64,000 nt of DNA from a virus (lineage: Duplodnaviria > Caudoviricetes): IMG/VR virus record IMGVR_UViG_3300010167_000010, positions 96,001 through 160,000 of that record; one strand, written 5' to 3'. This document shows, piece after piece, positions 23,551-57,998 of the stretch. The position numbers and the translations under genes were made by a program. The notes below the pieces were generated by a model. It was not told the origin of the DNA. It ran no database searches and worked only from the letters and a program-made list of their open reading frames with translations. The number at the start of each line of letters is the position of its first letter. Position 1 is the stretch's first letter.

Positions 23551-23623
23551 CGGAAGGTTTGATAGCGGCTAATCGGCTTGGTTTGGGACCAAGATTTCGT
23601 GGGTTCGAGTCCCACCCTTCCGA
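23551..23623 (+). tRNA. tRNA-Pro(TGG), CCA not encoded
   Basis: Acceptor CGGAAGG/CCTTCCG, anticodon arm CTTGG-TTTGGGA-CCAAG, T arm GTGGG-TTCGAGT-CCCAC. Confidence 0.93.
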
Positions 23624-24310: not shown

Positions 24311-24383
24311 TGCCTGGTAGTGTAATGGTTTAGCACTACAGACTTTGAATCTGTCAGTGGAGGTTCGAATCCTCCCTGGGCAG
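24311..24383 (+). tRNA. tRNA-Gln(TTG), CCA not encoded
   Basis: Acceptor TGCCTGG/CTGGGCA, anticodon arm ACAGA-CTTTGAA-TCTGT, T arm GGAGG-TTCGAAT-CCTCC. Confidence 0.95.
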
Positions 24384-24402
24384 CTAATTTATGAGGTGAT
24401 AT

Positions 24403-24570: not shown

Positions 24571-24845
24571 TGAAAGATGTTTATGGTTTTAATGTTGATG
24601 TTGGAGATTATGTAATATATCCAAATGAAATAAAACGATATAATTTTTATATTTGGAAAGTACATAAAGTTACACCCCAAAAAATTTGGACAGATAAATT
24701 TCCAGGAGCAAAAGAACCTTATTATAATGCATTTACTAGACAAATGGAAATAAGGGACACACAATTAGTAGGAAGAGAAAACGTTGTAAAAGCAACGCCT
24801 GAACAAATTGAAGTGGCCAGGCAAAGGGGGATGTTAGTTGAATGA
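24570..24845 (+). CDS. hypothetical protein (SH3/KOW-like)
   Basis: D..G..V.VGDYV pattern. Confidence 0.6.
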   Translation: MKDVYGFNVDVGDYVIYPNEIKRYNFYIWKVHKVTPQKIWTDKFPGAKEPYYNAFTRQMEIRDTQLVGRENVVKATPEQIEVARQRGMLVE

Positions 24846-25054
24846 GTTGGAAATTTGGAATTCAATGTACTGAATGTAATAAAATTACAATACCTTATAG
24901 ATATGCAGATTGTATATGTGAAAAGTGCGGCGCGCTACTTTGGACAAGCGGAGATGATAAACGTATATTAAAATCTGGGCGCAGAGTATCATATAAAAAT
25001 CGTTTATTTAGAAAACCATTAGTAAGGACAGATATTTATGAAAACAATACTTAA
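24842..25054 (+). CDS. small zinc-ribbon protein
   Basis: CTEC...CEKC. Confidence 0.6.
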   Translation: MSWKFGIQCTECNKITIPYRYADCICEKCGALLWTSGDDKRILKSGRRVSYKNRLFRKPLVRTDIYENNT

Positions 25055-26246
25055 AGAAACAGCATCCATTAAAGTTTATCTTGAAACTGATAAGCTTGGA
25101 GATCAATGGAAAAAGTTTCGTTCAAAAGAATATAATTATAATTTTAATTTAAGAACAGGAATGTTCCAACGTTGGGGTATCTCAGAAAGAGATGATCCAG
25201 ATATGTCAGAATTTGGACCAGAAATTTTAGATTTTGAAATTACTACGTCTTGTAATGGAATTGATGGTAAACTTTGTAAATACTGTTATAAAGCCAATAC
25301 TCCAGAAGGAAAAAATACTTCATTTGAAGATTTTAAAAAAGTAATTCAAGAAATAAATTTTAATAATCAGCTAACTCAGGTTGCTTTTGGTTTAGGTTCA
25401 TCTGGATTAGAAAATCCAGAACTTTGGAATATGTGTGAATATCTCAGAGAAAACCACATTATACCAAACGGAACAATTGCTCAAGTTGATAATGAAACAG
25501 CCAGACTTATTTCAGAAAATTTTGGCGGAGTAGCTGTAAGTTTCCATTCTGATTTTGAAGTTCTAGCTGAAACAATTAAGAAACTTTCACTTGCATCTGT
25601 TAGTCCTTATCCAGAAAAAAGACAAACTTTACAACAGATCAATGTACATTTTTGTTTAATGGAAGAAACGTATGATGATTGTTTGAAACTTTTTGAAATG
25701 GTAAAAAGTGATAATCGATTTGAAGGGCTGAATGCAATAGTATTGCTTGGTCTCAAACAATGTGGAAGAGCCAAAACAGGTTTTAGTAAATTGTCAGACA
25801 AAAAATTTAGAGACTTAATTAGAATTGCATTTGAGAAGAAAATTGGAATTGGTTTTGATTCATGTTCTGCAAATAAGTTTATTAAGGCAGCTGAAATATT
25901 GTCAATGGAAAAAATACAACAAATTGAAGAGGGGTTAATAGATGATTTTGAAGTTGGCCATCAATTACCTAGACCAGAAGTAATGCTTGAAAAAATAAAA
26001 TTGCATAATATGCTTCAGTTAGTAGAGCCTTGTGAAAGTGGTTTATTTTCAAGTTATGTAAATGTTAATTGTATTTATCATCATTGTTCATTTGAAGAAG
26101 GGAGTGATAAAACTAATTGGAAAGGTTTCGATTTAATAAATAAATCTACTTCTTTTAAGCGATTTTGGCAAATACATGCTGAAATGAAAAGATGGAGAGA
26201 AGAATTGGCTGCATCTGGAAGAAGCTGTCCAATTTATGATGTTTAG
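25038..26246 (+). CDS. radical SAM enzyme with C-terminal SPASM/Twitch-like region
   Basis: PEILDFEITTSC-x7-CKYCY; PCESGLFS.Y.....HCSF; terminal CP. Confidence 0.88.
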   Translation: MKTILKETASIKVYLETDKLGDQWKKFRSKEYNYNFNLRTGMFQRWGISERDDPDMSEFGPEILDFEITTSCNGIDGKLCKYCYKANTPEGKNTSFEDFKKVIQEINFNNQLTQVAFGLGSSGLENPELWNMCEYLRENHIIPNGTIAQVDNETARLISENFGGVAVSFHSDFEVLAETIKKLSLASVSPYPEKRQTLQQINVHFCLMEETYDDCLKLFEMVKSDNRFEGLNAIVLLGLKQCGRAKTGFSKLSDKKFRDLIRIAFEKKIGIGFDSCSANKFIKAAEILSMEKIQQIEEGLIDDFEVGHQLPRPEVMLEKIKLHNMLQLVEPCESGLFSSYVNVNCIYHHCSFEEGSDKTNWKGFDLINKSTSFKRFWQIHAEMKRWREELAASGRSCPIYDV

Positions 26247-26331
26247 ATATGATAGTATCAGTAATTATTTTAAGTTTTGGGTTCGGATTTTTATTCGGAA
26301 TATTAGCTGGTGGTAAATTAAGGAGTAAAAT

Positions 26332-26772
26332 ATGAAAATAAGAAACGGTTTTGTTAGTAATAGTTCAAGCTCTTCATTTGTTATTGGATCAAATGAGAAA
26401 TTAGATAAAACTTTAAAAGAAAACTTTACAGAATTTTTTCCAGCTGAAAACGAAAGAACTAAAGAGTTTATAAAATTATTAGCAGATGAAATTGATTGGG
26501 AATTTGAAAGTTACGATGGACATGAAACAATGGAAACTTGGAAAGAATATGAGAAATATCATCGTGATGGTTGGGGTCAATATAATGAAGAAATTCCAGA
26601 AGAGGATATAAAACTTTATAAACCATTTTTTGATAATTGGAAATACGTTCACTTTATAAGAATACCTTCTGATGGTGATGGAGGAACTCGATTAAGTCAA
26701 GCATTACGATATGCTTTTCCAAGAGAATATAAAAGTGAAAAATGTGAAATTAAAATAGAATGTAATGGATAG
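26332..26772 (+). CDS. MKIRxGFVSNSSSSSF-leader family protein 1
   Basis: Leader motif; AAGGAG RBS. Confidence 0.85.
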   Translation: MKIRNGFVSNSSSSSFVIGSNEKLDKTLKENFTEFFPAENERTKEFIKLLADEIDWEFESYDGHETMETWKEYEKYHRDGWGQYNEEIPEEDIKLYKPFFDNWKYVHFIRIPSDGDGGTRLSQALRYAFPREYKSEKCEIKIECNG

Positions 26773-26784
26773 AAGGAGATAAAA

Positions 26785-27150
26785 ATGAAAATTAGAAATG
26801 GTTTTGTTAGTAATTCTAGTAGTTCAAGTTTTGTAATTGCTGGAGTAAGAATGGACGAAGATCAATTTGTTGAATTTTTTAATGTAGACGAAGATACTTT
26901 AGAAGAAATGAAAGAAGATTGTTATAATATTCCAACAAATTTTGACACAAAAGGTCTCGATATTGAAGTAGATTTTGAAAATGAATCTTTTTATGTAGGT
27001 AAAGTAATTATTGGTGATGACGGTGAATTTTATGGTGGATGCGCGCTTGATTTAAATGAAGCAACTAAAGCAATGAATTCTACTGAAGTAAAATCTATAA
27101 AAGAAAATGGGTATGTACCTAAAGTTTTAATAGTAACTATACCTGGGTAG
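26785..27150 (+). CDS. MKIRxGFVSNSSSSSF-leader family protein 2
   Basis: Leader motif; AAGGAG RBS. Confidence 0.85.
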   Translation: MKIRNGFVSNSSSSSFVIAGVRMDEDQFVEFFNVDEDTLEEMKEDCYNIPTNFDTKGLDIEVDFENESFYVGKVIIGDDGEFYGGCALDLNEATKAMNSTEVKSIKENGYVPKVLIVTIPG

Positions 27151-27161
27151 GAGAATTAAAA

Positions 27162-27446
27162 ATGAAAATAAGAACAGGTTTTGTAAGTAATAGTTCTAGC
27201 AGCTCATTTTGTATTTTTGGTACTTATGAAAATCTTACTAGCGAAATGATAGATAAATTAGAAGATGCTGGTTTTAGCGTTTATGATCCATGGGAATCAT
27301 CATGTCAATATGCTGGCATGGATTGTGATAAAATGGAAATGGATGAAACTCGTCGTCAATTTGAAGATCGTGTTACAAAAAAATTAGAAGAATTAGGATA
27401 TAAAGGTCCATTTGGACACTATCGTGAAGGCTGGTATAATGGGTAA
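27162..27446 (+). CDS. MKIRxGFVSNSSSSSF-leader family protein 3
   Basis: Leader motif; AGGAG RBS. Confidence 0.85.
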   Translation: MKIRTGFVSNSSSSSFCIFGTYENLTSEMIDKLEDAGFSVYDPWESSCQYAGMDCDKMEMDETRRQFEDRVTKKLEELGYKGPFGHYREGWYNG

Positions 27447-27548
27447 AATCTTATGTTATTTAGGATTTCACGATTGGGAATATTGTTATGATACAGCTTC
27501 CCATGCACCCGTTAAACATTGTATAAAATGTGGAATTAAAATATTGAG

Positions 27549-27854
27549 GTGTACATGATAAAAATTATATTTTTAATTATTTTAGTTTTATTTATTGGGT
27601 GTTCTTCATTTGAAGATAAAGTAACAATATCTCAAGTAATAATTTTTGATGAAGAACTTTTTACTATCTATAGTTCACAAACTCCTAGGGGTCCAATGAG
27701 AGGAGATATAGCTATTGTTGGTCTTCTTCATACAAGAGGTAGAGTATTTCCAATTACAGTTTTTGGAAAACAAGATGAACATACTGATAAAGTAATAGAT
27801 AATATTGGTAGATCACTTCCAGTAAAAGAATGGGAAAAGTTAATTTCAAATTAA
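27549..27854 (+). CDS. putative lipoprotein
   Basis: Hydrophobic signal ending FIGC lipobox. Confidence 0.6.
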   Translation: MYMIKIIFLIILVLFIGCSSFEDKVTISQVIIFDEELFTIYSSQTPRGPMRGDIAIVGLLHTRGRVFPITVFGKQDEHTDKVIDNIGRSLPVKEWEKLISN

Positions 27855-27863
27855 GAGGATAAC

Positions 27864-28580
27864 ATGAAAATAAGAAATGGATTTGTAAGTAATAGTTCAA
27901 GTAGTTCTTTTGTAATTAATGTTGCAGATATATTTATAATACCTGGAATGCCAAAAACTTTAAAAGATAGAAAAACTTTAATTGTGCCATTTATTTTTGG
28001 CGGAGAAACTTGTTTTGGTAGACAACGAGAAAATTATTCAGATTTTGGCAGTCGTTTAAATTGGGCTTATCTTCAAGCGAGATCATTAAAAAGAGCTTAC
28101 GATCTTTTACAACAAGATCCAACAATGAGTGTTCAACATACTCAAAAATCTATAAACTTAATAAAGAAACATAATAATGATATTACTATTTTAGAAGAAA
28201 TATTAAAAGAAAATTTAAAAATAGAAAATATAGAATGGAGATTATTACACGATTATGAAAAACCACCAACTAGATGGGAAAACGAATATCACAGTGGTCC
28301 TGGTGGAAACGAACCATTAGGTTATGTTCAAGGATATATTGATCATCAATCTACTTGGTATGATAGACCAGAAGAGTACTTAAATATTTTTGAAAATAAA
28401 GAATCTATTTTTCAATGGCTTTTCGGTGATGGGAATTATGTTGCAAATCGTTCTGATGAGTACGAAGATGCATCAGATCCGGAAGTAAATCATTTATTTG
28501 ATTATATGACATATGAATTATATTACAATGAACAAGATAATCCTGAGAAGTTTGATCAAAAAGGTAATTTTATAGAGTAA
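27864..28580 (+). CDS. MKIRxGFVSNSSSSSF-leader family protein 4
   Basis: Leader motif; longer body containing YIDHQS. Confidence 0.85.
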   Translation: MKIRNGFVSNSSSSSFVINVADIFIIPGMPKTLKDRKTLIVPFIFGGETCFGRQRENYSDFGSRLNWAYLQARSLKRAYDLLQQDPTMSVQHTQKSINLIKKHNNDITILEEILKENLKIENIEWRLLHDYEKPPTRWENEYHSGPGGNEPLGYVQGYIDHQSTWYDRPEEYLNIFENKESIFQWLFGDGNYVANRSDEYEDASDPEVNHLFDYMTYELYYNEQDNPEKFDQKGNFIE

Positions 28581-28608: not shown

Positions 28609-29268
28609 ATGGATTTTCAAGTAGCTTTAATGCATAGACGAAAATTTCCCAGAATTGGTCATACTATTGATAGTAAAAGTATGCAGGCCGATGATTTTGT
28701 AGTTAATCCAAATTTTTTACATAAAAATGTAGTAATTACTGAAAAACTTGATGGTGAAAATACTGTTATGGGCAATCGTTATATACATGCCAGATCTTTA
28801 GATAGTGGCGGAGCTGCATGGAGAACAATGGTGGCCGCAATTCACGCTAAAATTAGTTCGCATATTCCCGAAACAATGAGAATATGTGGAGAAAATATGC
28901 AAGGAAAACATAGTATCGAATATGAACTTGATTATCCTTTTTATGTTTTTCAAGTTACAGATAAACAAAAAGTATTAAGTTGGGACGATACATTAGTAAT
29001 ATGTGAATGTTTAGAATTACCTGCTGTCCCAGAAATTTATCGTGGAGAATATCATCCAGATTTAATTAAATTAGCATACAGTTTATATCAAAATAATTCA
29101 TTAAATGATGAAATTGAAGGATATGTAATTCGTAATGTAGACGAATTTAATGAATCTGATTTTGATAAAAATATAGCAAAATGGGTTAGACCTAATCATG
29201 TTCAAACAGATGAACATTGGACCAAAAATTGGACACCAAATAAAATAAGGAATAAATCGTGTTATTAG
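28609..29268 (+). CDS. RNA ligase (Rnl2-like nucleotidyltransferase)
   Basis: Motif I TEKLDGEN, motif III GEN, motif IV EGYVIR, motif V AKWV. Confidence 0.85.
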   Translation: MDFQVALMHRRKFPRIGHTIDSKSMQADDFVVNPNFLHKNVVITEKLDGENTVMGNRYIHARSLDSGGAAWRTMVAAIHAKISSHIPETMRICGENMQGKHSIEYELDYPFYVFQVTDKQKVLSWDDTLVICECLELPAVPEIYRGEYHPDLIKLAYSLYQNNSLNDEIEGYVIRNVDEFNESDFDKNIAKWVRPNHVQTDEHWTKNWTPNKIRNKSCY

Positions 29269-29789
29269 TAACTGTAGGAATTTCTGGAAGCGGGAAAAAT
29301 AGATTAAAAGATTTTTTAGATCAATATTTTAGTAGCAAAGGAATTGCATTTACTAATGTTGAACCAGATGCAATACGTCGAAAAATGTGGGGAGACGTAA
29401 ACGAGCAAAAAAATGGCCACTTAGTTTTTAAGAAAGCTGGAGAACAAATTATTAAAGGTATTATTGAAAACAAAATAGTATTTTTTAATGCAACAAATAC
29501 AAACTGGTCACGTCTTAAAGCTTTTGTAGAAGAAAATACAGATTATACTCAAAAAGTTATTTATATTTTTATGATGGATAGCTTAAACTTTAATATTTGT
29601 AAACAACGTGTAAATGATGATATTAAAAGTAATATAGATAGATCTCGCGTTCCTGACGATATAATTTATCGTCAGTATCAAAATTTTCAAACATGTTTTA
29701 GAAATGCAAAAGATGATCATGAAGCAGAAATTTATGAATATGACGGGCAATATCATAAGCTTATTCTTTATATCGAAAAGTTAATTTAA
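29259..29789 (+). CDS. polynucleotide kinase-like P-loop protein
   Basis: GISGSGKN, DAIR, NATN, R.VP. Confidence 0.8.
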   Translation: MLLVTVGISGSGKNRLKDFLDQYFSSKGIAFTNVEPDAIRRKMWGDVNEQKNGHLVFKKAGEQIIKGIIENKIVFFNATNTNWSRLKAFVEENTDYTQKVIYIFMMDSLNFNICKQRVNDDIKSNIDRSRVPDDIIYRQYQNFQTCFRNAKDDHEAEIYEYDGQYHKLILYIEKLI

Positions 29790-29793
29790 TATT

Positions 29794-30306
29794 ATGAAAT
29801 CAATATTACTCATCGTTCATGGGATGGATGGGTCTGGAAAAGAAAATTTACGAGATAAATTATTAAATTATTATAAACATAATTTTATTACTGTAGATTT
29901 AGAAGATATAAAGAATAATGCAATTGGCTCTTTAAATGAGAATACCCAACAATGGGTATTACAAATTGCTTATCATATTTTAAACAGTACTCAAGAAAAT
30001 AATATTTTATATTTCGATGTTAAAAGTTTTTATTGGGAAGACTTAAAAGAATTTATAAATAAAAGTGCACCTGATACTAAACAAATCTATTTATTTTTAG
30101 AAGATTCATTAGATCCAAAATTATGTATAAATAGAGCAAACGAAGAAATAGAAAACTCTTTGAATAAAGACATTATTACACCAGAAGAAATGATACTACA
30201 ATATAATAGTTTTATAGATAGTTTAGAAAAAGCTAAATTAGAAAATAACTACTATATTTACAACGATTTTGATAAGTTAATATCTTATATTAAGGAGAAT
30301 ATATGA
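29794..30306 (+). CDS. degenerate paralogue of the P-loop kinase
   Basis: GMDGSGKE; DSLDPKLC parallels DSLNFNIC. Confidence 0.65.
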   Translation: MKSILLIVHGMDGSGKENLRDKLLNYYKHNFITVDLEDIKNNAIGSLNENTQQWVLQIAYHILNSTQENNILYFDVKSFYWEDLKEFINKSAPDTKQIYLFLEDSLDPKLCINRANEEIENSLNKDIITPEEMILQYNSFIDSLEKAKLENNYYIYNDFDKLISYIKENI

Positions 30307-53019: not shown

Positions 53020-53628
53020 ATGTCTAATAATATAGTTGGAATTTATAAAGTTACAAATTTAATTAATCAGAAGTTTTATATAGGTATGTCTAAAAATATT
53101 TTTAAAAGATGGAAAGTACATAAAAATTTAAAAAGAAAACTTAAAACATATTTTGATTTTGCTTTATTAAAATATGGAACAGAAAATTTTAAATTTGAAA
53201 TTATTGAAGAATGTGAAAGTGAAAATATTAATGAAAAAGAAATTTATTGGATTGCAAAATTAAAACCAGAGTATAATCTTACAAAAGGTGGGACAGGTGG
53301 TGATACTTGGTCTTTATTATCTGAAGAGAATAAAAAATTAAAAATTGAAAAATTAAGAAAAAGTTGTAAAATAAGTCATAATACTGAATCTTATAAAGAA
53401 TATGCAAAAAAAGCCGTATTAGGTAATAAAAATCCAATGCATAAAAATAACTTTACTTTTACACCCGAATTGCTAGAAAAATGGAGGCTTTCTCATTTAG
53501 GTGAAAAAAATGGAATGTATGGAAAAAAACGATATACTAACGGAAAAGAAAATATAGTAGGAATAGAATGCCCTCGAGGATTCAGGCCAGGCATAACCCA
53601 TTCCATTATTAATAAATCCAAACTCTAA
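53020..53628 (+). CDS. free-standing GIY-YIG homing endonuclease with NUMOD-type C-terminus
   Basis: GIYKVTN..N..FYIG.S..I..RW..H, E..WI, YN; GEKNGMYGK. Confidence 0.92.
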   Translation: MSNNIVGIYKVTNLINQKFYIGMSKNIFKRWKVHKNLKRKLKTYFDFALLKYGTENFKFEIIEECESENINEKEIYWIAKLKPEYNLTKGGTGGDTWSLLSEENKKLKIEKLRKSCKISHNTESYKEYAKKAVLGNKNPMHKNNFTFTPELLEKWRLSHLGEKNGMYGKKRYTNGKENIVGIECPRGFRPGITHSIINKSKL

Positions 53629-54013: not shown

Positions 54014-55192
54014 GTGATAAGTTTTACAATTAAAACAGATCAATTAAGTAGAATTAAAATTTTACAAGACTACATTAAAAAAATGGAAACATTTTCTTCT
54101 TTAGATAAAAAGCAAGTTTTTGTATTAGAGAATGATAAACTTACTATTTTTGGAAAAGCAGATAGTGCCGGAGCTGGTCATATTGAAGCAACATTTGATA
54201 TTTCTAATTTAAATAAAAGTGAATCTTTTGGTTTTGAACTAGATAAGTTTATAAATTATTTAGAAAAATGTAAATCTGATGAAATAAATATCAGTATTGC
54301 AAATAATAAAATTACATTTAAAACCAAAACAAATAAATTGATAATAAATGAAGCTTTAGTATTTACAGCATTAGATCCACAAGTTTTAACTGAATTAAAA
54401 GATAATATTAAAAATAAATTGGCTCTCCCAGAATTCAAGAAACCAATTGAAATTAAATTAGATCATAGAGATTTAATTACTGAATTAGGCACTATGACCA
54501 AGCTTCAAGATACAAATCATCAAATACTTTTAGGTAAAGATTTTATTAAATCAGCTGATACTTTATGTATATTAAGTTTAAAATCTTCTTTAACTATTGT
54601 GCAAACAGATGAAGAAGTATTTATAGATAGAGATATAACTTCTATATTTAAGAATACAGATTCTTTTAAAATATCTTCTGATAAAAAATATTTTTATTTT
54701 GATATTCAGAATTATGGTATTAAATTGATATTTGTACCAAAAACATTTAATTGGTCATTTCCAACAGATCAAGATATTATTGATATTAGTCCAGAAGCTA
54801 AAAAGCTAATAACTTTAAAAATAAATACAGAAAGATTTTATGAAGAACTTTCTAAGTTTGAAGGGGTTTTTGAAACTGGAACTTGGAGATATGGTCAAAT
54901 AAAAATTAGAACACCTAAAGGTTTTAAAGATGAATTAGAATTATCTTTTGATAATAGTATAACAGAAGTATTTACTACGTTACCAATTACTATAACATCT
55001 AATACAGATAAAACAGATAATTTTGAATTTATGATCCCAACTATTCATTTTAAATCATTAAAATCTATTTTATCTAGTGAAGATACTTTTACATTTAAGT
55101 ATTCATCTTCAAAATTAAGTGACCCAAATGGTGTTGCAATAATTATAGAAAATACTAATGCTAATATTATTTTAGCCAAAATGGAGGAATAA
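54014..55192 (+). CDS. putative DNA sliding clamp (beta-clamp-like)
   Basis: 392 aa, three-fold beta-rich organisation; MISFTI.. start and ..IILAKM end resemble DnaN; GGAGG RBS, GTG start. Confidence 0.5.
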   Translation: MISFTIKTDQLSRIKILQDYIKKMETFSSLDKKQVFVLENDKLTIFGKADSAGAGHIEATFDISNLNKSESFGFELDKFINYLEKCKSDEINISIANNKITFKTKTNKLIINEALVFTALDPQVLTELKDNIKNKLALPEFKKPIEIKLDHRDLITELGTMTKLQDTNHQILLGKDFIKSADTLCILSLKSSLTIVQTDEEVFIDRDITSIFKNTDSFKISSDKKYFYFDIQNYGIKLIFVPKTFNWSFPTDQDIIDISPEAKKLITLKINTERFYEELSKFEGVFETGTWRYGQIKIRTPKGFKDELELSFDNSITEVFTTLPITITSNTDKTDNFEFMIPTIHFKSLKSILSSEDTFTFKYSSSKLSDPNGVAIIIENTNANIILAKMEE

Positions 55193-55193
55193 C

Positions 55194-55568
55194 TTGAAAA
55201 TTAGAAATGGTTTCGTTAGTAACAGTTCATCAAGTTCATTTATTATAATTGGATTAAGAGTACAAGATATTGAAGAATCTTTAATTAAATATGCTAAAGA
55301 GTTTTGTTCTGCCGCATTTTATAATGAAAAATTAAGTATGTTTGAATTAGCTGAACACCTTGGTGTAGATTATGATTGCGACGGTGATGATAATGATGGT
55401 GTTATTGGTAGAACAATTGCATATGTAGATTATGAAGATTGTTGTATAGAAAGAGAAATGATATCTGTAAAAAATATTGTTGAAGAACCAAAATTAAAAA
55501 CTTTATTTGATATTACTGGTAAAACTAAAGATGATTTAGTAATATTATCTGGTAATGGTGAAGCATGA
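55194..55568 (+). CDS. MKIRxGFVSNSSSSSF-leader family protein 5
   Basis: TTG start after GGAGG. Confidence 0.85.
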   Translation: MKIRNGFVSNSSSSSFIIIGLRVQDIEESLIKYAKEFCSAAFYNEKLSMFELAEHLGVDYDCDGDDNDGVIGRTIAYVDYEDCCIEREMISVKNIVEEPKLKTLFDITGKTKDDLVILSGNGEA

Positions 55569-55727: not shown

Positions 55728-56015
55728 ATGAAGATTAGAATTAGTTTTGTTAGTAATAGTTCTTCTGCATCTTTTATAATAGATAAAAGAACTATATCAC
55801 AAGATCAATTAATTTTAATATTAAATCATAAAGATAGTGGTTTAGAATATGCTAATACTGATGCTTGGGAATTAGAAGATGGATTAAATTATTTAAAAGG
55901 TTCTACAATTATAGATAATTTTGATATGCGAAGATTTCTAAAAAGTATTGGGATTAAAAAGGTTCACGAGTGGGAATCAGATAATGATGATTGGGAAGGA
56001 TGGGATTTAAAATGA
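55728..56015 (+). CDS. MKIRxGFVSNSSSSSF-leader family protein 6 (variant MKIRISFVSNSSSASF)
   Basis: Leader motif; start placed at ATG 55728. Confidence 0.8.
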   Translation: MKIRISFVSNSSSASFIIDKRTISQDQLILILNHKDSGLEYANTDAWELEDGLNYLKGSTIIDNFDMRRFLKSIGIKKVHEWESDNDDWEGWDLK

Positions 56016-56416
56016 AAATAAGAAATGGGTTTGTAAGTAATAGTTCTAGCAGTTCTTTTGTTATTGCCTTTAACGGTGATAGAATAGGATTAGAGAAAAA
56101 AATAAAAGATGTATTTGGAATGAAGTTTAAACATCCAATAAAATTCCCAGATTTATCTGGATCTATAATAAATTGTATTAGTGAAGAATATTCTGATATA
56201 GATGGAATAAAAGAATTTATGGATTATTTTGACATGGAAGATGAAAAAGATGGTCCAGATGAACATGTACAAGCAATAAAGTATCTTAAAAAAGGTTGGA
56301 TAATTTGTACTGGAGAATTTTCAGATCAAGATGATCCAGAAGAAGCACTTTTATGTAATTCAGAAATAGAATATAAAGATAAAGATTTATATATCTCTTC
56401 TCCAGAAGGCTACTAA
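56012..56416 (+). CDS. MKIRxGFVSNSSSSSF-leader family protein 7
   Basis: Leader motif; start placed at ATG 56012. Confidence 0.85.
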   Translation: MKIRNGFVSNSSSSSFVIAFNGDRIGLEKKIKDVFGMKFKHPIKFPDLSGSIINCISEEYSDIDGIKEFMDYFDMEDEKDGPDEHVQAIKYLKKGWIICTGEFSDQDDPEEALLCNSEIEYKDKDLYISSPEGY

Positions 56417-56617: not shown

Positions 56618-56983
56618 ATGAAAAAGATATTTTTAATTTTATTAGTTTTATTTATAAGTTCTACAATATATGCACAATCAGCAAATTATCAACAATTGGC
56701 ACAAGACGCTGCAAGAAACTTATCAAGAAATGAACAAGAGTATAATAGATTATTAGCATTATTAAATGAATCACAAAATAATTCTCGTTTTATAAGTTTT
56801 CAAACTAGATTAAATGGTTTACAAAGACAGATTGAAGCACAAGAAAAAATAGTTGAAGACTTAATAAATAGACCAGCTGTTATAGTAAATATAAGAAATG
56901 CATTAGATGAGTTAGTTAGACTTAATGACAGATATAAATCAGTAGAAGCCCAATATCGTGAATGGCTTAATTCTTTAAGATGA
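56618..56983 (+). CDS. secreted coiled-coil protein
   Basis: Sec signal ending IYA-Q; helical body. Confidence 0.7.
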   Translation: MKKIFLILLVLFISSTIYAQSANYQQLAQDAARNLSRNEQEYNRLLALLNESQNNSRFISFQTRLNGLQRQIEAQEKIVEDLINRPAVIVNIRNALDELVRLNDRYKSVEAQYREWLNSLR

Positions 56984-57198: not shown

Positions 57199-57371
57199 TT
57201 AATTTAAATAAATGAGTAAAAAAGCAAAAATTATATTAAAAATAATATCATTTTTATTATTTATTTTTATTGGTTCATTTATTAGTGTTCATATTCCAAC
57301 AACTGATGTTGGAATAATAGCATTAGCTTTAATAGGAACACATTTACTAACAGATCATCTTGGAGATCATA

Positions 57372-57998
57372 ATGAAAATAATAAGTCATAGTGCAGAAAT
57401 AATTTATCCAGAAACAGAAGAAGATTGGTTACGGGAAGCAAAATTTATAGAATTAGCAGCCCGTAATTGTTATAAATCTGAAGATAAAATAACAAAAGAT
57501 AGTTGGCGATCTATGGTTAAAATGCTCAAAGAAAAAGAGCATGGAGCAATGATAGAATTTGGAAATATAATTGTTAGAATTATAACTGATATTAGATCTA
57601 AACGAGATATAACACGACATCGCTTATGTAGTTTTGCAGTTGAATCAACTCGTTATTGTAATTATAGTAAAGAAAAATTTGGTAAAGAAATTACAGTAGT
57701 ACAACCAACTGAAATATGGAATAAAGAATCAGTTCAATACGAAACTTGGAAACAAGCATGTGAAAAAGCCGAATGGTTTTATTTTACAATATTAGCTGAA
57801 GGAGCTAAAGCAGAAAATGCGGCTACTACACTTCCATTAGCAACTAAATCTGACATTGTTATGAAATGTAATTGGAGAGAAATGCTTCATATATTTAAGT
57901 TAAGAGGAAAATATTCTAAAGCACATCCAGATGTTAAATTTAATTTTGAAAAATTACAAGAAAAATGTATAGAAAAAATGCCGGAGGTTTTTACATGA
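57372..57998 (+). CDS. thyX: FAD-dependent thymidylate synthase ThyX
   Basis: AARNCYKS, H.AMIEF, RHRLCSFAVESTRY, N.RE..H...LR...AHP. Confidence 0.9.
   Translation: MKIISHSAEIIYPETEEDWLREAKFIELAARNCYKSEDKITKDSWRSMVKMLKEKEHGAMIEFGNIIVRIITDIRSKRDITRHRLCSFAVESTRYCNYSKEKFGKEITVVQPTEIWNKESVQYETWKQACEKAEWFYFTILAEGAKAENAATTLPLATKSDIVMKCNWREMLHIFKLRGKYSKAHPDVKFNFEKLQEKCIEKMPEVFT

Follow-up and report, generated by a model that had tools for sequence, protein, structure and literature searches.

An N-terminal tag shared by diverse phage proteins and its matched radical-SAM enzymes: a candidate two-component modification system

Here we describe a 64,000-nucleotide stretch of DNA (hereafter 'the window') from a tailed phage of the class Caudoviricetes, corresponding to positions 96,001 to 160,000 of IMG/VR record IMGVR_UViG_3300010167_000010, which encodes a radical S-adenosylmethionine (radical-SAM) enzyme along with seven proteins that share a near-invariant N-terminal peptide of 16 residues (the 'tag'). 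The same tag is found at the start of many otherwise dissimilar phage proteins; genomes chosen for the tag contain the enzyme, and genomes chosen for the enzyme contain the tag; and two forms of the tag are each partnered by their own clade of enzyme. Synthesising these findings, we propose that enzyme and tagged proteins make up a two-component phage system (one enzyme and nine tagged proteins in this genome), in which the enzyme would both bind and modify the tag, a reading to which we give a probability of roughly 0.55.

The tag and the proteins that carry it

Seven open reading frames (ORFs) of the window, four of them downstream of the radical-SAM gene and three in a second, more distant cluster (Table 1), begin with MKIR[N/T/I][G/S]FVSNSSS[S/A]SF, just as a preliminary description of this DNA, made from its letters alone, had noticed. 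In a seven-way alignment 14 of the 18 leading columns are invariant, and since a Shine-Dalgarno-like purine run lies 5-10 nucleotides upstream of the tag methionine in 7/7 ORFs, we take the tag to be the true N-terminus. The serine codons at tag positions 11-15 switch between AGY and TCN from copy to copy, again as first described; conservation therefore acts at the level of the protein. Beyond the tag, the proteins (94-238 amino acids, aa) can barely be aligned, the mean column identity of ~29% being mostly noise.

A profile built from the seven window proteins, and run against a large protein collection with a cut-off of E<=0.1, recovered 615 proteins; among the 120 matches listed, all begin with the same peptide, and 14 homologues of the longest window protein (238 aa) are found among these first 120. 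The logo drawn from 201 distinct sequences reads M-K-I(85%)-R-x-G(96%)-F-V(97%)-S-N-S-S-S(94%)-S/A-S-F(98%), followed by two aliphatic residues, with conservation of 98-100% at positions 2, 7, 9-12 and 15-16, a part of which is fixed by the regular-expression pre-filter itself.

What follows the tag is highly varied. Once trimmed of it, 209 distinct tagged proteins can be sorted by body into 15 or more clusters, with 53 left as singletons, and profile-profile comparison of the eight largest clusters gave probabilities below 5% for nearly all pairs, the exception being three clusters of ~120 aa that are weakly related to one another. Amongst the bodies, which are 70 to 260 aa long, are one family of ~90 aa and another of ~230 aa, as well as Cys-rich zinc-ribbon-like and ferredoxin-like types. 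Because the trimmed bodies are mostly non-homologous, the tag is best described as a module carried by apparently unrelated proteins, rather than as the conserved end of one family. Their acidity, also remarked upon at the outset, holds for the wider set (median body isoelectric point 4.5, with 90% below 5.5). The remark that three copies end in glycine is likewise correct for the window, but does not extend to the family: only 13% of the 209 proteins have a terminal glycine (42% have one within the last five residues), and we have discarded it as a family feature. Two N-terminal motifs considered for the tag, the PP-loop (SGGxDS) and a HAD-like motif, were dropped, as the bodies are too small and mutually unrelated.

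Searches of Pfam and NCBIfam returned nothing meaningful for the tagged proteins. Six of the seven match phrog_7397, solely through residues 1-20/48, and that family is annotated as 'unknown function'; a protein Atlas feature search with the 238-aa member produced merely unnamed viral clusters, with scores below 0.9. For the 95-aa family, an AlphaFold model made from a 46-sequence alignment (mean predicted local distance difference test score, pLDDT, of 72) has a small ferredoxin-like α/β domain in which tag residues 14-19 form the first strand, with residues 1-11 modelled as a floppy tail (pLDDT < 50). A fold search with this model found nothing at E<=0.001; there is a weak ferredoxin-like resemblance, with no significant match in the PDB.

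Linkage and matched forms of tag and enzyme

The preliminary description had proposed that leader and enzyme be checked for co-occurrence and adjacency, and both were found. Two uncultured relatives, whose enzymes are 53-54% identical to that of the window, have four to five tag genes just downstream of it. Selecting for the tag (65 IMG/VR loci fetched; 49 records searched for the enzyme), we found the enzyme in 37/49 records. All of the records with a completeness of 90% or more (14/14) have it, and those without it are mostly fragments. These 14 near-complete genomes have 3-11 tag genes each, with the enzyme no more than ~4 kb from an array of 2-11 of them and, in most, directly adjacent. 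Selecting instead for the enzyme, the tag is present in 44/45 IMG/VR records, among them every one (17/17) with a completeness of 90% or more. When the ORFs of 18 neighbourhoods were clustered, the enzyme (18/18) and the tag family proved to be the only families shared. The near-complete genomes thus gave no instance of a tag leading an existence independent of this enzyme, and its form, as set out below, also co-varies with the enzyme clade.

The enzyme is present in 173 of 50,697 cultured-phage records (Klebsiella Slopekvirus and T4-like phages of Enterobacter, Cronobacter and Escherichia), and the system also occurs in jumbo phages of up to 548 kb. A tblastn search of cultured phages with one tagged protein gave no match, probably as a result of low-complexity masking of the serine run, and profile searches of whole records were used for the tag instead; at the nucleotide level, the locus matched no cultured phage. 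Amongst representatives of 185,579 cellular species genomes there are only 14 tag loci, all on contigs of metagenome-assembled genomes (MAGs) and with the enzyme inside the flank in 7, so the system appears to be essentially viral.

Two complete genomes with an enzyme only 27-28% identical to that of the window provided the second form of the tag, reading ...GFVTNSSSSSF. A search of IMG/VR for this 'T-form' yielded 79 loci, and a logo from 164 tags of M-K-x-R-x-D(91%)-F-V-T(100%)-N-S-S-S-S-S-F/Y. A radical-SAM gene lies within 8 kb in 68/79 of these loci; every one belongs to a second clade (clade B), and in none does it belong to clade A, the clade of the window enzyme. The two clades are 23% identical; in clade B the first motif is C-x5-7-C-x6-C-Y, and an additional C-terminal CX2CX6CX2C block is kept. 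Conversely, loci with the G6/S9 tag ('S-form') have a clade A enzyme in 43 cases and an intermediate enzyme in one, set against about 69 loci that pair D6/T9 with clade B; there are 0 loci in which a D6/T9 tag accompanies clade A, and none that mixes S and T tags. The intermediate case (L200, Verrucomicrobia MAG contig CANGMH010000252.1) has an S-form tag and an enzyme that shares 25% identity with clade A and 32-35% with clade B, and that may represent a third clade.

Of the 194 distinct T-form proteins, 89 have bodies with S-form homologues, spread over at least eight body clusters. Because the same body families carry either form, the form of the tag follows the enzyme clade and not the body family. 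All the tags of a genome, although on unrelated genes, have changed in concert with the enzyme, which is what a common reader of the tag would predict. The clade-specific changes are located only at positions 6 and 9 (G6D/S9T), and point to these two residues as specificity determinants; at position 9 the β-hydroxyl is always kept, the residue being S or T in 100% of each respective form. As far as the sequences go, the matched pairs (G6/S9 with clade A, D6/T9 with clade B) are a new finding of this work.

The enzyme and its surroundings

The window enzyme matches phrog_7293 (E 2.9e-74), a family annotated as 'unknown function'. Against the Pfam Radical_SAM model (PF04055) it scores 21.2 bits, under the curated cut-off of 29.5, and it has no Pfam SPASM match of its own; 11/13 of its relatives match Radical_SAM (best E 4.5e-10) and 10/13 match SPASM (PF13186; best E 2.2e-7). 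The fold, too, places the enzyme in the radical-SAM superfamily: its AlphaFold (AF2) model (pLDDT 95.3) matches many solved radical-SAM structures with a probability of 1.0. The top Foldseek matches are CteB, SuiB, anSMEcpe, SkfB and EpeE (E 1.8e-9 to 1e-6, identity 11-14%), and the top-ranked structures are all peptide- or protein-modifying radical-SAM enzymes. Only this comparison of folds led to solved structures, the alignment profile of the enzyme finding no match at E<=1 among PDB sequences. A scan of NCBIfam found neither an anSME nor an FxsB model at E<=0.1, the sole match being TIGR04317, whose 24.7 bits fall short of its cut-off of 380.

The cluster motif of the window enzyme, C72-x7-C80-x2-C83-Y, provides the three cysteines that in this superfamily ligate the SAM-binding [4Fe-4S] cluster. 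Its Cx7Cx2C spacing is most simply read as a loop insertion, because among its relatives the motif varies between the canonical CX3CX2C and CX12CX2C; C72 is at least 90% conserved, and the other two cysteines, C80 and C83, are invariant. Four further cysteines are invariant in 57 clade A sequences, namely C276 (GFDSC), C332 (EPCES), C350 (CSF) and C397. SPASM domains hold two auxiliary [4Fe-4S] clusters with 7-8 cysteines, twitch domains one cluster; the four extra cysteines of clade A would fit a single auxiliary cluster, that is, a twitch-like domain. Ahead of the barrel, the model has an N-terminal five-strand β domain (residues 1-46) with the conserved motif YNYxF...GxFxRWG, and shows no winged-helix or helix-rich domain of the kind known as the RiPP recognition element (RRE), RiPPs being ribosomally synthesised and post-translationally modified peptides.

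A co-fold of the enzyme with a tagged protein, as suggested in the preliminary description, lends some further, if weak, support to the pairing. The enzyme (13-row alignment) was modelled together with two 4Fe-4S clusters, SAM and, as its partner, the tagged protein of 95 aa (46 rows); the pair scored 0.60 (runs 0.60, 0.76 and 0.59), as compared with 0.00 for the best of three controls. The mark applied is one reached by 58/80 solved complexes and by 2/110 mismatched pairs; among those that reach it, a score of 0.60 or lower was seen in only 7 of the 80 solved complexes, and in both of the mismatches that passed. Contact agreement between runs was at least 54%, and the partner pLDDT at least 41.

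Table 1. Genes and other features of the window (numbering from its first nucleotide)
Feature	Position	Strand	Basis or context
tRNA-Pro(TGG)	23551-23623	+	just upstream of enzyme locus
tRNA-Gln(TTG)	24311-24384	+	just upstream of enzyme locus
70-aa zinc-ribbon-like ORF, two CxxC pairs	24842-25054	+	17-nt overlap with start of enzyme gene
Radical-SAM enzyme, clade A, 402 aa	25038..26246	+	phrog_7293, Pfam in relatives, AF2 model, Foldseek
Tagged protein 1, 146 aa, MKIRNGFVSNSSSSSF + acidic body	26332..26772	+	ORF list, alignment, Ser codons, upstream purine run
Tagged protein 2, 121 aa, body family 'VIAG...' (cluster 5)	26785..27150	+	alignment, body clustering
Tagged protein 3, 94 aa, body family ending W-Y/F-D/N-G (cluster 2)	27162..27446	+	alignment, body clustering
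101-aa ORF, lipoprotein-like signal (...LVLFIGCSSF...)	27549-27854	+	between third and fourth tag genes of the array
Tagged protein 4, 238 aa, conserved ~230-aa body family (MPKxLKDxKTLxVP...)	27864..28580	+	alignment, body clustering
RNA ligase and two small P-loop kinase-like proteins	28609-30306	+	directly downstream of array
GIY-YIG homing-endonuclease-like gene	53020-53628	+	flanks second tag cluster
392-aa ORF	54014-55192	+	just upstream of second tag cluster
Tagged protein 5, 124 aa, TTG start, GGAGG upstream	55194..55568	+	ORF list, alignment
Tagged protein 6, 95 aa, largest body family (~90 aa)	55728..56015	+	clustering, predicted structure
Tagged protein 7, 134 aa, overlaps stop of tagged protein 6 gene	56012..56416	+	ORF list, alignment
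Second lipoprotein- or secreted-type ORF	56618-56983	+	directly after second tag cluster
ThyX (Thy1) thymidylate synthase	57360-57998	+	flanks second tag cluster

The window is part of a complete phage genome of 329,018 bp with direct terminal repeats, and has a GC content of 28.3%; two of the nine tag genes of that genome lie outside it. Amongst the neighbours of the enzyme (Table 1), the zinc-ribbon-like ORF that overlaps the start of its gene is not kept beside the enzyme in the other 17 neighbourhoods compared, and the lipoprotein-like ORF within the array is without a Pfam or PHROG match. The RNA ligase downstream matches PF09414 (E 5.7e-25), the two kinase-like proteins having weak AAA_33/APS_kinase matches, and the same trio is found 3' of the array in two related uncultured phages (L001 and L002). 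The 392-aa ORF ahead of the second cluster has no Pfam match; an initial assignment of it as a sliding clamp was dropped, as Pfam gave no support.

Proposed action, alternatives and comparison with known systems

We propose a model in which a single radical-SAM enzyme, with an auxiliary cluster of SPASM/twitch type, would recognise the N-terminal 16-mer on a set of unrelated small acidic proteins. The first ~13 residues of the tag would present a free, extended handle ahead of the first β-strand of each body, of which the enzyme would read at least positions 6-9 (G/D-F-V-S/T); direct recognition of the tag by the enzyme we consider likely. Most likely, the enzyme would then make one and the same covalent change to each protein, in the tag or beside it, and, by analogy with its structural neighbours, would do so by abstracting a hydrogen atom from a tag residue. 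That the change lies within the tag itself is a proposition we favour, if only slightly, and its site is probably around F7-V8-S/T9. Candidate chemistries are oxidation of the Ser/Thr Cβ (as in anSME), an aromatic-to-Cβ cross-link across F7-V8-S/T9, and epimerisation (as in EpeE).

Since the bodies are small, acidic and diverse, and are encoded among small non-structural genes, we suggest that the modification probably serves to mature, stabilise or arm proteins of host takeover or anti-defence; many known factors of both kinds belong to the class of small, acidic phage proteins of early type. A more ambitious form of the proposal, which we hold tentatively, is that a new tag modification (a Phe7-to-Ser/Thr9 cyclophane or Ser/Thr Cβ oxidation at the extreme N-terminus being candidates) acts as a common 'maturation code' that arms or protects dozens of unrelated host-takeover and anti-defence proteins, in at least two orthogonal enzyme/tag pairs.

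Saying this, several points weigh against the proposal. The evidence is comparative throughout, and the partition between clades A and B may stem from one ancient split, in which case the counts given above would not be independent of each other. The co-fold is a small increment, in which the fold of the partner is uncertain. Clustering of the 18 neighbourhoods revealed no recurrent protease, RRE protein, or transporter/exporter, unlike typical RiPP clusters. Tag genes, two in each phage, lie ~20 kb from the enzyme in Klebsiella phage Matisse and in E. coli phage RB43 (where they are ORF116c and ORF121c), so adjacency is common, not obligatory. In RB43 (L208, NC_007023), moreover, the enzyme ORF (26713-27859, minus strand; annotated as the overlapping ORF169c and ORF168c) is split near its C-terminus, leaving the piece with the last conserved cysteine out of frame, through either a frameshift or an old sequencing error; the Matisse enzyme is an intact single ORF.

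The enzyme could also act elsewhere than on the tag. In the alternative that survives best, although we think it unlikely, the tag is a mere docking handle and the chemistry falls on a body residue, or else on some host molecule brought along by the body, the tagged proteins in the latter case being interchangeable specificity adaptors or regulators of the enzyme. Co-variation of tag and enzyme, and the weak support from the co-fold, suit binding as well as they suit modification; no leader protease is conserved across the 18 neighbourhoods; and the conserved leader of a RiPP system usually serves for recognition, while it is the variable part that becomes modified. Against this, the bodies have no common motif that could serve as a shared site, and the changes that distinguish the clades keep the β-hydroxyl at position 9, which is how a chemically required residue, more than a simple point of contact, would be expected to behave.

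A second possibility, which we regard as improbable, is that some other machinery reads the tag as a signal for sorting, assembly or stability (packaging into the capsid for injection, control of degradation, or cross-β co-assembly), the radical-SAM gene being linked only indirectly. T4-type internal proteins offer a precedent, being diverse proteins that share a short N-terminal capsid-targeting sequence, and the distance between tag genes and enzyme in Matisse and RB43 would sit comfortably with such a role. It is harder to square with the 14/14 and 17/17 co-occurrence, with adjacency in otherwise unrelated neighbourhoods, or with a tag form that tracks the enzyme clade unmixed, and the tag has no acidic L/I-x-E residue such as the T4 prohead protease uses.

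Finally, the suggestion made in the preliminary description, that the serine run is the phosphate-binding loop of a nucleotide-binding fold (more generally, an intrinsic phosphate- or metal-binding loop of one very divergent superfamily, with the enzyme hitch-hiking by lineage), is now very improbable: a hydrophobic strand, Ser-rich loop and second strand do resemble strand-loop nucleotide-binding motifs, and residues 14-19 do enter the body sheet in the one model made, but most of the trimmed body clusters, of differing types and 70-260 aa in length, are without profile-profile similarity, residues 1-11 are of low confidence and unpacked, Pfam and NCBIfam have no domain for these proteins, and the concerted G6D/S9T switch with enzyme clade is left unexplained.

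We found no paper describing the tag, or its pairing with the enzyme, in the literature searched, one paper merely repeating the automatic annotation 'peptide-modifying radical SAM enzyme' for a Slopekvirus gene; nor did family or literature searches turn up an existing family of unrelated function to which the tagged proteins could be assigned. The tag/enzyme system is found across hundreds of phages, whose hosts include E. coli, Klebsiella, Enterobacter and Cronobacter. Should tag modification be borne out, it would constitute a very common phage post-translational modification system that is absent from that literature, would extend leader-guided radical-SAM/SPASM chemistry from short peptides to whole folded proteins, and would open a way into hundreds of small acidic phage proteins of early type that are as yet uncharacterised; the enzyme/tag pairs could, in addition, serve as portable, genetically encoded protein-tagging chemistries. 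The cultured RB43, RB16 and Slopekvirus phages make the system directly testable, and the two non-mixing enzyme/tag forms permit a clean swap experiment.

Amongst known systems, the SPASM/twitch maturases of RiPPs (CteB, 5WHY/5WGG; SuiB, 5V1Q-5V1T; SkfB, 6EFN; EpeE, 8AI1-8AI6) are the best structural matches to the phage enzyme (Foldseek E 1.8e-9 to 4e-7, probability 1.0, TM-score 0.35-0.58). As there, one enzyme would serve several substrates with a conserved N-terminal recognition sequence, and an auxiliary Fe-S domain follows the radical-SAM core. The putative phage substrates, however, are apparently folded proteins of 70-260 aa from many families, and not short peptides; the enzyme has its five-strand β N-domain in place of an RRE, and clade A has cysteines enough for one auxiliary cluster; and the system has no conserved leader protease or exporter, is encoded by phages, and is multi-copy, each genome having 2-16 tagged genes. 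The logic of a shared leader and a single maturase is thus RiPP-like, but these loci are not peptide natural-product clusters.

A second comparison is with the anaerobic sulfatase-maturating enzymes (anSMEcpe, 4K36-4K39; AtsB), radical-SAM/SPASM enzymes which modify Ser or Cys on full-length, folded proteins that are not export peptides. The structure of anSMEcpe is a neighbour of the phage enzyme (Foldseek E 6.9e-8), and an invariant S/T at tag position 9 would suit abstraction of a Cβ-H, as in anSME. On the other hand, the phage tag contains no sulfatase motif (C/S)-x-(P/A)-x-R, a lack that places the phage enzyme outside the anSME group, and anSMEs have two auxiliary clusters to the one expected for clade A from its cysteine count. 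The preliminary claim, that the enzyme modifies the serine segment of the leader, fares unevenly: a functional link between enzyme and tag is backed by co-occurrence, co-variation and fold class, but the analogy with formylglycine formation of the anSME type falls with the missing motif, and the site may, in place of the SNSSSSS run, be the F-V-S/T segment, to which the clade-specific changes are confined, or the body.

The internal proteins of T4 are likewise diverse small phage proteins, encoded at plastic loci and with a short shared N-terminal sequence, which in their case targets them to the capsid. The phage tag differs in having no L/I-x-E site and in co-varying with a radical-SAM enzyme, not with head genes, and the sequences are unrelated.

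Two published ideas bear on the chemistry or on the genetic arrangement. Triceptide cyclophane synthases act on an aromatic-X-X motif, in which the ring is cross-linked to the Cβ of the third residue (PMC11499958); F7-V8-S/T9 is such a motif, present and invariant in the phage tag, and makes a cyclophane a candidate chemistry. The nearest idea published is that of the FxSxx-COOH peptides with their radical-SAM/SPASM enzyme (FxsA/FxsB), in bacterial conflict systems where variable proteins bear a conserved peptide (Kaur, Burroughs, Iyer, Aravind 2020, PMC7159879). The phage tag holds the comparable F7-V8-S9-N10-S11, and here too variable proteins are encoded beside a radical-SAM gene. Yet the FxSxx peptide is C-terminal and released by a protease whereas the phage tag sits at the extreme N-terminus, and none of the vWA/MoxR or AP-ATPase partners of the FxSxx systems occurs in the 18 phage neighbourhoods, so that the phage system falls outside FxsA/FxsB. 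In kind, the system that we propose would be a variant of leader-guided radical-SAM maturation, directed at whole proteins, encoded by phages, and deployed on a large scale.

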